64,000 bases of DNA from Planctomycetota bacterium. GTDB lineage: Bacteria > Planctomycetota > Planctomycetia > Pirellulales > Lacipirellulaceae. Below are positions 28,732-32,254 of this stretch, piece by piece; positions within the stretch are counted from its first letter, which is position 1; each line of letters starts with the position of its first letter. The stretch lies in assembly GCA_039190745.1 (NCBI GenBank), contig JBCCXZ010000001.1, forward strand, positions 1 through 64,000. The letters are read 5' to 3'. The position numbers and the translations under genes are program-made. The notes below the pieces were generated by a model. It was not told the DNA's origin, ran no database searches, and was given only the letters and a program-made list of their open reading frames with translations.

Positions 28732-29151
28732 TCACTCTCCCCAGAGGGTGGCGATCACGGTGCGCGGACCCGCGTGGTTGCGGTGTTCGCAAAGGTAAAC
28801 GCCCTGCCAGGTTCCCAGCATCAACCGGCCGCTGCCGACCGGGATGTTCAGGCTGCAGCCGATAAAGGCCGCCTTCACGTGGGCCGGCATGTCGTCGGGG
28901 CCCTCACAAGTGTGCCGGTAGGGGAGCGTCTCGGGCACAATCGCAGAGACCGTGGATTCGAGGTCGAGCGGCACGTCTGGGTCGGCGTTCTCGTTGATTG
29001 AAAGCGACGCGCTCGTGTGCTGGAGGAAGAGGTTCAACATTCCGGCCTTTACGCCGGTTAGGTCGGGAACTTCGGAGAGCAGTTCAGTCGTCACAATGTG
29101 GAAGCCCCTCGGCTTGGGCGTGAGGCAGATTACCGACTGCTGGCACGGCAT
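28732..29151 (-). CDS. yjbQ: YjbQ/UPF0047 family protein (secondary thiamine-phosphate synthase)
   Basis: HTSASLSINENADPDV, EGPDDMPAHVK, LGTWQGVYLCEHR. Confidence 0.92.
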   Translation of the reverse strand: MPCQQSVICLTPKPRGFHIVTTELLSEVPDLTGVKAGMLNLFLQHTSASLSINENADPDVPLDLESTVSAIVPETLPYRHTCEGPDDMPAHVKAAFIGCSLNIPVGSGRLMLGTWQGVYLCEHRNHAGPRTVIATLWGE

Positions 29152-29305: not shown

Positions 29306-29335
29306 TTGACTTGCTTCACACGCTGGTAATAATCT
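29306..29335 (+). promoter_or_regulatory. Putative sigma70-type promoter
   Basis: A-tract, TTGACT at 29306-29311, then TGGTAATAATCT; locally AT-rich in a GC-rich genome. Confidence 0.6.
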
Positions 29336-29339
29336 TTTC

Positions 29340-29641
29340 ATTAATCTGCCATTCGGGTCGCTGGCGTGCTAAGTGCAAACGCCGCAAAGACTCCGATAAG
29401 GAGTCCCCGCTGACGATTGTTTCATCCAGCGGGACCAACCCACCCACCTAAGCGACTCGGGCCCTGCAGAAATAGCAGAACGGAGAGCAGGAATCTGACT
29501 CTGTCCTTGGAGGACAGAGAGTCGGTAAGGACACCGTGACGAATCACCGAGGGTAGCCGAGGCGCAGGAACGCCAAGCCGTGCACCCGCCAGCGAGCATC
29601 CGCTTTGCGTCCGCAAGGCGTTACGAGAGAGAAGGTTAAGA
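29340..29641 (+). ncRNA. Candidate structured GGA-rich RNA or long 5' leader (CsrB/RsmZ-like)
   Basis: Multibranch domain 29354-29459 plus hairpins CGGT-AAGGAC-ACCG and GGCG-CAGGAA-CGCC; lies next to csrA. Confidence 0.5.
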
Positions 29642-29872
29642 ATGCCTGACCACAAGCTTAAGAACGTCTTCGAAGCCATCCTGAAGTATGGGCACGACGA
29701 AGACTTTGCTCCCTCGATCGACCGCGGCTTCCGTGCGACGCAGGCCCCCGCGGGTTCGCGTGAGAAGCTCGATGTGCTTGCCGATCGTGTTCGGTCGGGC
29801 TACCCGCTCTGGCACGACGAAGACCGTGCGGATTACACGGGCCTGACGGGCGCCGTCCGCCCGCGCGATTGA
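29642..29872 (+). CDS. Small hypothetical protein (76 aa)
   Basis: ATG after a purine-rich RBS, GC3-rich codons, motif TQAPAGSREKLDVLADRV...PLWHDED; followed by a terminator. Confidence 0.8.
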   Translation: MPDHKLKNVFEAILKYGHDEDFAPSIDRGFRATQAPAGSREKLDVLADRVRSGYPLWHDEDRADYTGLTGAVRPRD

Positions 29873-29957
29873 GCCGCTGCCGCGATTTAGCTCAGGCGAT
29901 TGTGCCTGCCGGCGCCCTGCGGGGTTCGTGGTTTCCGGTAGAGTGACTCCAAAACGC

Positions 29958-29994
29958 AAAAAGGCCGCCCGCTATCCAGCGGGCGGCCTTTTTT
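29958..29994. terminator. Bidirectional rho-independent terminator
   Basis: aaaaaggccgcccgct-atcc-agcgggcggcctttttt between convergent genes. Confidence 0.92.
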
Positions 29995-30068
29995 GGCCTT
30001 TGTGGCTCGCACGCAGCGCGATTAGGTTGGGCCCTCGCCGCCCCGGTCGCGCGTTAGGCTGCGGATGC

Positions 30069-30287
30069 CTAAGCGATTTTCTCGAGTACGCCGGCCGGCT
30101 CTGCGGCGTTTTCGGACGCTGGCGCCGCGAGTGACTCGAAGCTCTCCAACTCATCTCTGAGGACAACAAGGTCTCTGGGCGCCTGGATGCCCAGGCGTAC
30201 TTTGTCGCCCGCGAGGCGGATGACGGTAATGACGATCGAGTCTCCCAGTCTGATTTTCTCTGCTTCTTTTCTGGACAGGACGAGCAC
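30069..30287 (-). CDS. csrA: Carbon storage regulator CsrA/RsmA family protein
   Basis: MLVLSRKEAEKIRLGDSIVITV...KVRLGIQAPRDLVVLRDEL; GTG start with GGAGG SD. Confidence 0.93.
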   Translation of the reverse strand: MLVLSRKEAEKIRLGDSIVITVIRLAGDKVRLGIQAPRDLVVLRDELESFESLAAPASENAAEPAGVLEKIA

Positions 30288-30290
30288 GTG

Positions 30291-30306
30291 AACACCTCCG
30301 TGTGTC
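30291..30306 (-). promoter_or_regulatory. Putative CsrA-binding hairpin occluding the csrA Shine-Dalgarno
   Basis: Minus strand GACAC-ACGGAG-GTGTT, 3 nt before the GTG start. Confidence 0.6.
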
Positions 30307-30647: not shown

Positions 30648-31280
30648 TCAGTCCTTCGGGAAGATCCCGGCGCCGAACTGCTCTCCCCCGTCGAGCGGCG
30701 GGGCGTGGTCGTTGGCGGCCGAGTTATCGATGTGCGGCGGCCGGACGGGCGATCCCTGCGCGTCGTGGGCCCCGGAGCGGCCCTCGCGGTGCGGCGCCTG
30801 GCTGGCGTTCTTGTGCGGCGAATCGAAGCGCTTCTGCTGGTCCGGTTGCCCGGGGTGGTCGTAATCGCCGTCGAAATCGTCGTAGCGTGAGACGTAGCCC
30901 GGCTGCTTCGCTCGCTCGGTCTCCTCGTGGAACTCACGGATGACTTCTTCCTGGATCATCTCCCGGCAGGCGGAGTTGATCGGGTGTGCGATGTCGGCGT
31001 AGAGCTTCGCGCGGCCTTCGCTGTCTACGGGCAACCGGTTGGCGTTTTGGGCGACACCGCATTGGTTGCAGAATTTGGCCCGAAGGTGATTCTTGGTGCC
31101 GCAACGGGGGCAGTGCGAGGTGAGCTTTCGGCTCGGCATCGCCACGAAGGGGCCGTTGCCGCCTTCGATGATCTTGAGGTCGCGGACGACGAAGCAGTTG
31201 TCAAAGGTGATCGAGCAAAAGGCTTTGAGTCTCTCACCGGGCTCTTCCATGAGCTTGATCCTGACTTCGGTGATTCGCAC
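30648..31280 (-). CDS. spoVG: SpoVG family protein with inserted Zn-ribbon
   Basis: [41 protein letters not shown]...[15 protein letters not shown] 31280 after AGGAG. Confidence 0.9.
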
Positions 31281-31312
31281 AGCACTGTCTCCTGGAGCAG
31301 CCTGCCCAGCTG

Positions 31313-32254
31313 CTAACGAGTGGTCGTTACGAACGTGTTGTTGTTGTTTTCCGCTTTCATGATTCCCTCTATCGCTCGCGCGTGTGCGGCGTTCACCGCG
31401 AGGCCTACGCACGCCGAGCCGCTGCCCGTCATCCACTGTCCCACACAGCCGGCCCACGCGAGGCGATCGAGCGTGTCGCCGATGGAACGGACGAGCGCTG
31501 CCGCCGCGCCCTGCAGGCTGTTCACCGTACGCTCGGCGAATGCGCGGAGTCTGCCGGCACGCAGCGCATTGAGCAACCGACGTGTTCGCTCTTCGGCTTC
31601 AATGGGGTCGCCATTGCCGTTCTGCCGGGCCAATTCCGCGAAGGCATCTGCGGTGGGGACGCCCTCGTGTGGTTGGCTAACTACCAAGTGCAGTGCCGGA
31701 AGGCCTCCGATGGCACGCACCCGTTCTCCCCTGCCGGTGCAGACGGCGGGGCTGCCGGCGAGGAAGAAGGGGACGTCGCTTCCCAGGCGAGCCGCCAGTG
31801 TTGCGAGCCGCGGCTTGGTGAATCCCAAACCCCAGGCCTTGTTCAGCAGGAGAAGCGCGGCGGCGGCGTCGCTGCTGCCGCCCCCGAGGCCCGCTTGGGG
31901 CCGGGTGTGTTTCCAGAGGTCGATCCGCCCGTGGGCGACCACCCCGGCGGCGTCCGCCAAGAGACGGGCGGCCCGGGTAACTAAGTTGTCTTCCTCCACG
32001 CCGATCTCAGAAAAACCATCGTGGCAGGCAGCGGGCGGGTGGAGTCGGAATGAAAACTCCTGCTCTCCCCTATCGGTCGCCTTGGGGATCGCGGATACAG
32101 GCGTCCAACGCAAGCGATCACCCCAACTGAGCGGGGCCATCAGAGTGTGGAGCTCGTGAAACCCGTCTTCGCGTTTCCCCAGCACCTGCAGAGAGAGATT
32201 TACTTTTGCCGGGGCAAATCGGGTGAGCGGCTGATCAGAACGGCGAGGTCGCAT
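31313..32254 (-). CDS. ispE: 4-diphosphocytidyl-2-C-methyl-D-erythritol kinase
   Basis: [44 protein letters not shown]. Confidence 0.95.

Follow-up and report, generated by a model that had tools for sequence, protein, structure and literature searches.

An uncatalogued 5' leader of a Pirellulales 76-aa protein gene, with a candidate CsrA hairpin and a recurrent CCCACC(U) box

The closest described systems to the RNA reported here are the targets and antagonists of the CsrA/RsmE proteins. High-affinity CsrA/RsmE binding follows a consensus in which an ANGGAX hexaloop sits on a stem (Duss et al. 2014, PMC4005645), and the sRNAs CsrB/CsrC and RsmY/RsmZ/PrrB (RF00018, RF00166) carry GGA in small hairpins. 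In Campylobacter jejuni, the flaA mRNA leader is described as both a target and a sponge in the CsrA-FliW network, and an 18-nt optimum for GGA spacing is cited in the same report (Dugar et al. 2016, PMC4894983). Planctomycetes carry many CsrA paralogues; their high prevalence has been noted, and about half of the natural CsrA homologues failed to repress a test target, according to PMC13443453. Two further RNAs invite comparison. The Rhodopirellula-1 motif is a candidate cis-regulatory RNA from Planctomycetes (Weinberg et al. 2010, PMC2864571), and Rli31 of Listeria is a free Firmicutes sRNA whose C-rich apical loop is bound by SpoVG, a protein whose specificity is portrayed as weak and undefined by Burke and Portnoy (2016, PMC4959528). 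In the openly accessible literature searched, no description of planctomycete CsrA targets or of a C-box leader motif was found.

In this study, we report the analysis of a 302-nt element at positions 29340-29641 of the window, the whole 64,000-nt stretch of Planctomycetota DNA that was analysed. An earlier note, made from the sequence alone, had described the element as a highly structured RNA with GGA hexaloops that was either CsrB/RsmZ-like or a new leader motif. The element is a real, uncatalogued cis-regulatory leader and not a sponge sRNA. Its scaffold turns over between lineages, while two short motifs persist much more often than expected by chance. The reading that we prefer, and hold to be reasonably probable, is that a monocistronic mRNA (about 29340-29995) encodes a 76-aa protein and that its leader, the present element, serves as a regulatory platform to which proteins bind. 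The locus is made up as follows:

28732-29151, minus strand: divergent UPF0047 (YjbQ-like) gene, a neighbour in 84 of 95 loci
29306-29333, plus strand: sigma-70-type promoter, with -35 TTGACT at 29306-29311 and -10 AATAAT at 29328-29333 (10/12)
29340-29641, plus strand: structured 5' untranslated leader of the 76-aa gene, 302 nt
29629-29635, plus strand: probable ribosome-binding site GAGAAGG, without GGA, identical in the sister genome
29642-29872, plus strand: gene for a conserved 76-aa protein of no known family
29958-29993, both strands: bidirectional intrinsic terminator, with 16-nt perfect arms and A and T runs
30072-30306, minus strand: csrA paralogue (gene 30072-30287; Pfam CsrA), with its own ribosome-binding site in an ACGGAG hexaloop at 30291-30306
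30648-31457, minus strand: homologue of SpoVG, carrying an inserted zinc ribbon and a long tail that is disordered

The promoter ends 6 nt upstream of the element, and the transcription start would lie near 29340. The promoter pattern was found upstream of the 76-aa gene in 93 of 95 loci and then in 123 of 123 distinct orthologous loci, and a looser pattern in 63 of 80 loci of other families; in most matches outside the genus, the promoter was the sole part of the 349-nt query to be matched. As the earlier note had held, no terminator-like site was found between the promoter and the 76-aa ORF. The first plus-strand terminator (29958-29993) lies beyond the ORF and also serves the csrA paralogue, which converges on the 76-aa gene. 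With the promoter upstream and the first terminator behind the gene, the element is the whole promoter-to-start interval and therefore a leader. It is non-coding, because the leader of the sister genome differs by indels of 14, 12, 1, 1, 2 and 1 nt, and these frame-breaking changes ruled out leader peptide or antisense ORFs within it. That it is a leader rather than a separate sRNA is highly probable, and the suggestion of a regulated 5' UTR or new leader motif was supported. No other copy of the leader was detected in the same genome by blastn or nhmmer.

Among orthologues the leader ranges from 123 to 714 nt in length, with a median of 209 nt. The genera g9 and g19 (e.g. L107, L108, L022 and L177) have leaders of 376-714 nt, most with one textbook CsrA hairpin, and one relative (L329, G017:C40) carries a second, degenerate copy of leader and gene with internal stops.

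Every stem and motif named in the earlier note was recovered where it had been placed. The elements within the leader are:

29354-29459, plus strand: domain 1, in which P1 (29354-29362/29451-29459) encloses P2 (29363-29383), P3 (29389-29405) and P4 (29406-29433)
29439-29449, plus strand: C-box, two overlapping CCCACC copies (CCCACCCACCU) in the junction linker just before the 3' strand of P1
29464-29492, plus strand: small hairpin P5 (29464-29478), followed by ACGGA (29480-29484) and CAGGA (29488-29492)
29499-29519, plus strand: hairpin P6, 9 bp, with a UGG loop followed by A (GGA at 29509)
29523-29536, plus strand: hairpin P7, with an ANGGAN hexaloop (AAGGAC), 115 nt before the start codon
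29561-29574, plus strand: hairpin P8, with a CAGGAA loop of the non-canonical, lower-affinity class; MFE frequency 0.80
29587-29595, plus strand: alternative partner of the 5' strand of P1, pairing with 29358-29366

None of 100 shuffled sequences folded as well as the 302 nt (z -3.4), contrary to the possibility that the folding energy would be no better than that of shuffled controls; the opposite strand gave z -3.8. The description of some 300 highly structured nucleotides held for the element as a whole, but the signal came mostly from domain 1. This domain on its own formed the four-helix junction exactly as first described (z -4.85; 0 of 200 shuffles as good). The earlier note took this domain for the motif, although P3 is absent in the nearest relative, and overlooked the C-box, the most widely conserved part. 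Domain 2 was weaker (z -2.0; 8 of 200 shuffles), and the folding of the final 86 nt was unremarkable (z -0.3). Overall leader stability is not conserved across orthologues: the leader of the sister genome was not unusually stable (z -0.1), and the median z was -0.85 over 40 orthologous leaders, sampled as every other leader of at most 310 nt.

The full 302-nt sequence was matched in one of 120 family genomes, the same-genus sister genome G001; the other 18 leader matches consisted of 16 to the promoter only and 2 to short stretches elsewhere. Covariation between the two leaders was counted over helices P1, P2, P4, P6, P7 and P8, defined from the reference leader alone; P3, which the sister lacks, P5, which is retained but misaligned, and a single P8 pair with a gap were excluded. 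Six of the 37 pairs had changed; five of these were still paired, in three cases with both bases changed (P of 2.4e-4 and 3.6e-4 in simulations, about 3e-4, for two genomes). Compensated pairs were a G-U to C-G change in P1, a C-G to U-A change in P4 and one pair in P6, which also had one U-A to U-G change; the terminal P1 pair was broken. Both single-sided changes in stems were U-A to U-G, which fits the plus strand as the transcribed strand. In P8, AGGAA and three of four pairs were kept. The local helices are under selection within the genus, as seen in the covariation of two genomes. The scaffold was not alignable beyond the genus, and a metagenome pattern scan returned two matches, both chance and inside unrelated coding sequence, so that no third genus member was obtained. 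The locus is a clear example of short motifs that persist on a scaffold turning over too fast for covariance models.

Exactly eight GGA trinucleotides are present in the leader (29400, 29432, 29482, 29490, 29509, 29512, 29529 and 29567). The count previously given for 29400-29570 was exact, but it is not above chance, as 5.6 were expected from composition (P=0.14). The sister leader has 6 against 6.3 expected, and over the leader sets the totals were 248 against 240 (72 leaders) and 241 against 243 (58 leaders of other families, 7 of which overlap the first set). Six of the eight are kept in the sister genome, the two lost (29400 and 29512) being stem-buried, with an unpaired probability of 0.0. 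At least two clean GGA hexaloops had also been proposed; both hairpins exist, but only the AAGGAC loop of P7 is a canonical ANGGAN hexaloop, the other being the CAGGAA of P8. In the sister genome the P7 loop reads AGGGAC on the same stem, with N alone changed.

An ANGGAN hexaloop hairpin was found in 18 of 91 non-redundant leaders, against 2.8±1.6 in shuffled leaders (maximum 7), and in 6.0 of 23 genera against 0.7 when one leader per genus was counted; the remaining 73 leaders are without one. GGA ranked first of the 64 hexaloop cores in leaders (z 8.7, the next 1.9), and the hairpin occurred per kb at 7-17 times the upstream background of the genome (17 times for 4-bp stems), genome-wide backgrounds resting here on crude gene calls (ORFs of at least 90 codons) in which small genes are missed. 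The stems of these hairpins are unrelated between genera, N and the last base vary, and most of the 19 sites in the 18 leaders lie at a distance of 90-160 nt upstream of the start codon. The signal, strong within the family, was weak outside it: 9 of 58 leaders had the hairpin against 2.1, three of these having been counted before, which leaves 6 of 51 leaders that were new, and families gave 2.5 of 23 against 0.8. NNGGA pentaloops were rejected as an enriched motif, as they occurred in 20 of 91 leaders against 11.6 without being the top core, and in 9 of 58 against 9.2 elsewhere.

The hunch that CsrA binds this leader thus gained comparative support, and from these comparisons we regard binding to 29340-29641 as fairly probable. 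The P7 hairpin (29523-29536) is the best candidate for a CsrA docking site, and ACGGA (29480-29484) and CAGGA (29488-29492), whose contexts are identical in the sister genome, are candidate low-affinity sites. P7 is a weak helix (-3.5 kcal/mol) and its GGA was 0.07-0.5 unpaired in full-length folds; the accessibility of 29480-29492 was context-dependent (predicted 0.07-0.54). The GGA nearest to the ribosome-binding site GAGAAGG lies 75 nt upstream of it in both the leader and its sister, while 63 of 91 orthologues have a GGA within the last 20 nt of the leader.

The genome encodes eight CsrA paralogues and FliW. In the paralogue next to the 76-aa gene, R44 is invariant in 46 orthologues, and 63 of the 65 distinct orthologous loci carry CANGGAG at the ribosome-binding site, where each of the four bases occurs as N; the minus-strand hexaloop at 30291-30306 is a strong candidate for an autoregulatory CsrA site. 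GGA is also the top hexaloop core in the intergenic DNA of the genome (0.025 against a median of 0.013), and, by this and by the 63 of 65 csrA sites, canonical CsrA specificity is under selection here, which independently supports canonical recognition by CsrA. In flanks of 1.5-3 kb at 95 loci, csrA was matched in 65, as the usual downstream neighbour, and spoVG in 44; in the window the spoVG homologue is about 1 kb away. Dispersed, long palindromic repeats rich in CAGGAT and ACTAATC/GATTAGT were seen elsewhere in the genome (G000:C9:46217-46387, C71:5058-5226, C54:14071-14275 and C27:1250-1423). As the GGAs in them are matched by a complementary arm, they resemble REP/MITE-type repeats and not sponges.

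In the proposed mechanism, one of the eight CsrA paralogues would load on the ANGGAN hairpin at 29523-29536, and would then bridge to GGAs about 20 nt apart (29509 and 29490), a spacing close to the cited 18-nt optimum, or to 29567. As no GGA lies at the ribosome-binding site in this genus, an effect on folding, mRNA stability or premature termination would be likelier than ribosome occlusion. The leader resembles the hcnA-type targets (Duss et al. 2014, PMC4005645) in having ANGGAN on a stem, with a variable N and last base and with weaker flanking GGAs, and differs from them in a canonical site 115 nt upstream, the lack of GGA at the ribosome-binding site, an extra C-box and the eight CsrA paralogues. 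The locus offers a concrete CsrA test case in a family of which some named relatives have been cultured.

A dual-function mRNA would use many of the same sites. Here an abundant leader would mainly titrate a CsrA paralogue with little effect on its own gene, as for the Campylobacter flaA or Salmonella fim leader. The near-consensus conserved promoter suits this idea, as does the position of the best site in most leaders that have one, which at 90-160 nt from the start is too far for ribosome occlusion. The usual csrA neighbour also agrees with it, and FliW without a CsrB match is the setting in which flaA, a GGA-hexaloop mRNA leader like this one, acts as a sponge (Dugar et al. 2016, PMC4894983). 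Compared with flaA, however, the gene is not a flagellin gene, the promoter is sigma-70 and not flagellar, the leader is much longer and there is one canonical hexaloop, not two adjacent. With usually one canonical site per leader, no enrichment of total GGA and many genera without any site, we consider titration as the main role unlikely.

The second motif is the C-box, CCCACC(U). By sequence comparison it is the most widely conserved element of the leader, conserved beyond the family and kept across Pirellulales. Of all 7-mers, CCCACCT was the most enriched in the first leader set, where 25 of 72 leaders had it against 1.4 in shuffled ones, and it ranked first again in other families (15 of 58 against 0.7). 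Counted per lineage, it occurred in 6.1 of 23 genera against 0.5 and in 6.4 of 23 other families against 0.3. CCCACC was present in 29 of 49 groups and missing in 20, and it was found in none of 36 upstream regions of paralogues. As a genome-wide leader motif the C-box was rejected (16 against 14 expected, the tandem copies giving no coherent regulon), as was its pairing in cis with a G-rich partner or the ribosome-binding site, GGTGGG being present in 2 of 65 transcripts.

At 29439-29449 the C-box is predicted to be single-stranded (unpaired 1.0). Compared with shuffled context, the motif was more unpaired in 40 of 52 leaders and, counted by group, in 18 of 23. It is enclosed by a predicted helix in 67 of 83 cases, with stem sequences unrelated between lineages. 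A helix closes soon after it in 39 of 52, and enclosure beat the control in just 14 of 23 groups. Within genera the C-box stem is nearly invariant, so its covariation was not above shuffles in either of two alignments (173/500 and 307/500). A covariance model built from 27 g22, g10 and g20 leaders did not detect the 29340-29641 leader, so that homology of domain 1 to the core of those leaders is a matter of short motif and layout only; covariance model R1 detected only g10 and g22 leaders and, weakly, g3, and not this leader.

We lean, by a little, towards the C-box being an RNA-level protein site. It would most simply be a site for a second protein, with the 76-aa protein and SpoVG as candidates. 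In the proposed mechanism, this factor would read the CCCACC(U) boxes displayed in the P1-closed loop, and the reader would most plausibly be the 76-aa protein itself, by feedback, or the nearby SpoVG-type RNA-binding protein. A C-rich loop is shared with Rli31, a free sRNA unlike this leader. The locus pairs a comparatively supported CsrA site and a csrA with a conserved self-site with a C-box that points to an RNA-binding factor. A bolder version, which we offer as speculation, is that the C-box marks an order-wide Pirellulales RNA-protein system in which the 76-aa protein, a new RNA-binding regulator or CsrA partner, would read the tandem C-boxes of its own leader, while ANGGAN would link the self-regulated csrA paralogue as a feedback module.

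The C-box could instead act on DNA, as an operator or pause signal after a strong promoter, with hairpins that merely stabilise a fast-evolving leader and GGA loops that are lineage-specific or chance. A scaffold that cannot be aligned beyond the genus, modest folding across orthologues, stem covariation that is not significant and a first box at a median of 54 nt from the leader start would all agree with this. An operator, however, would hardly be expected to show the tandem spacing of 4-32 nt often seen here, or a distance from the leader start of about 20 to 170 nt. The motif is also preferentially unpaired, the U-G wobble changes fit the transcribed strand and the hexaloop enrichment is specific to GGA, which makes the DNA-level account improbable.

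A stand-alone CsrB/RsmZ-like sponge sRNA, released from the transcript or ending before the ORF, is very improbable. In its favour, the retained GGAs include several in or beside hairpins, ANGGA or CAGGA occurs five times in the leader against 1.9 expected (P=0.03), and there are eight CsrA paralogues. Per 120 nt, however, the density of ANGGA/CAGGA was exceeded by 14 of 2260 intergenic strand-segments and equalled by 29 (42 others at or above the leader). In contrast to the CsrB/RsmZ sRNAs, the leader has no terminator of its own, no GGA enrichment (nor has its sister), one canonical hexaloop and no model match, and its sequence, at widely varying lengths, is always fused to the same gene; the CsrB/RsmZ-like label was therefore dropped. 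The CsrB model had no match in the whole genome, and the PrrB/RsmZ model had one sub-threshold match elsewhere, at a gene end and terminator.

No Rfam match at E<=10 overlapped 29340-29641, and none was found at the leader in 22 orthologous loci, where two sub-threshold hits lie downstream of the gene. In agreement with the initial impression of no likeness to tmRNA, RNase P, SRP or a known riboswitch, the RNase P, SRP, tmRNA and 6S models did not match at the locus, and the leader is without the conserved ends and order-wide conservation of these RNAs. RNase P and SRP were matched elsewhere in the genome; tmRNA and 6S RNA were not found in the 95% complete assembly with Rfam or ARAGORN, being unassembled or divergent. 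The Rhodopirellula-1 motif, compared by eye as it has no Rfam model, looks unrelated: in the alignment rows compared (PMC2864571) it is one hairpin, interrupted, whose ends read GAU/GAAC and UUAUC..CGUU, and it has no C-box or GGA loops.

In the isolated 302-nt fold, the P1 closing stem was replaced by the competing 29358-29366/29587-29595 pairing; the local P1 stem won once the fold included 30 nt of the coding region, and it also won in snapshots of at most 200 nt. A conformational switch (riboswitch-like or a thermosensor) through these alternative partners is very doubtful: both partners (29451-29459 and 29587-29595) are largely retained in the sister genome, and by ensemble energies with coding sequence the 29587-29595 pairing is about 5 kcal/mol less stable here and about 3 in the sister, but accessibility of the ribosome-binding site was not consistently switched between conformers in the two genomes, and no terminator, order-wide conserved aptamer core, Rfam match or covariation above shuffles was found.

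The leader with its C-box draws attention to a protein that is nearly universal in Pirellulales and belongs to no known family. The 76-aa gene was present in 40 of 41 relatives and, as a single copy (E<=1e-25), in 112 of 120 family genomes. Of 131 Pirellulales genomes 126 have it, as do 8 of the 201 sampled across the phylum. Its named relatives are Lacipirellulaceae and other Pirellulales. The protein had no match in Pfam, PHROGs or PDB sequence and scattered single-member matches only in NCBIfam; an Atlas search returned hypothetical Planctomycetota clusters only, and the viral contigs searched contained no relative. Its AlphaFold2 model (pLDDT 86) has two short helices and gave no fold match with Foldseek or VIA-align.

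A 66-aa paralogue of the protein is encoded at G000:C7:15836-16036 (minus strand). It too lies behind a sigma-70-type promoter, the pattern being present at 23 of 36 loci, and its leaders have no C-box. The 76-aa domain was also seen attached to either end of six long low-complexity proteins (P0163, P0166, P0187, P0194, P0200 and P0233) that match no Pfam family, and it may be a docking module.
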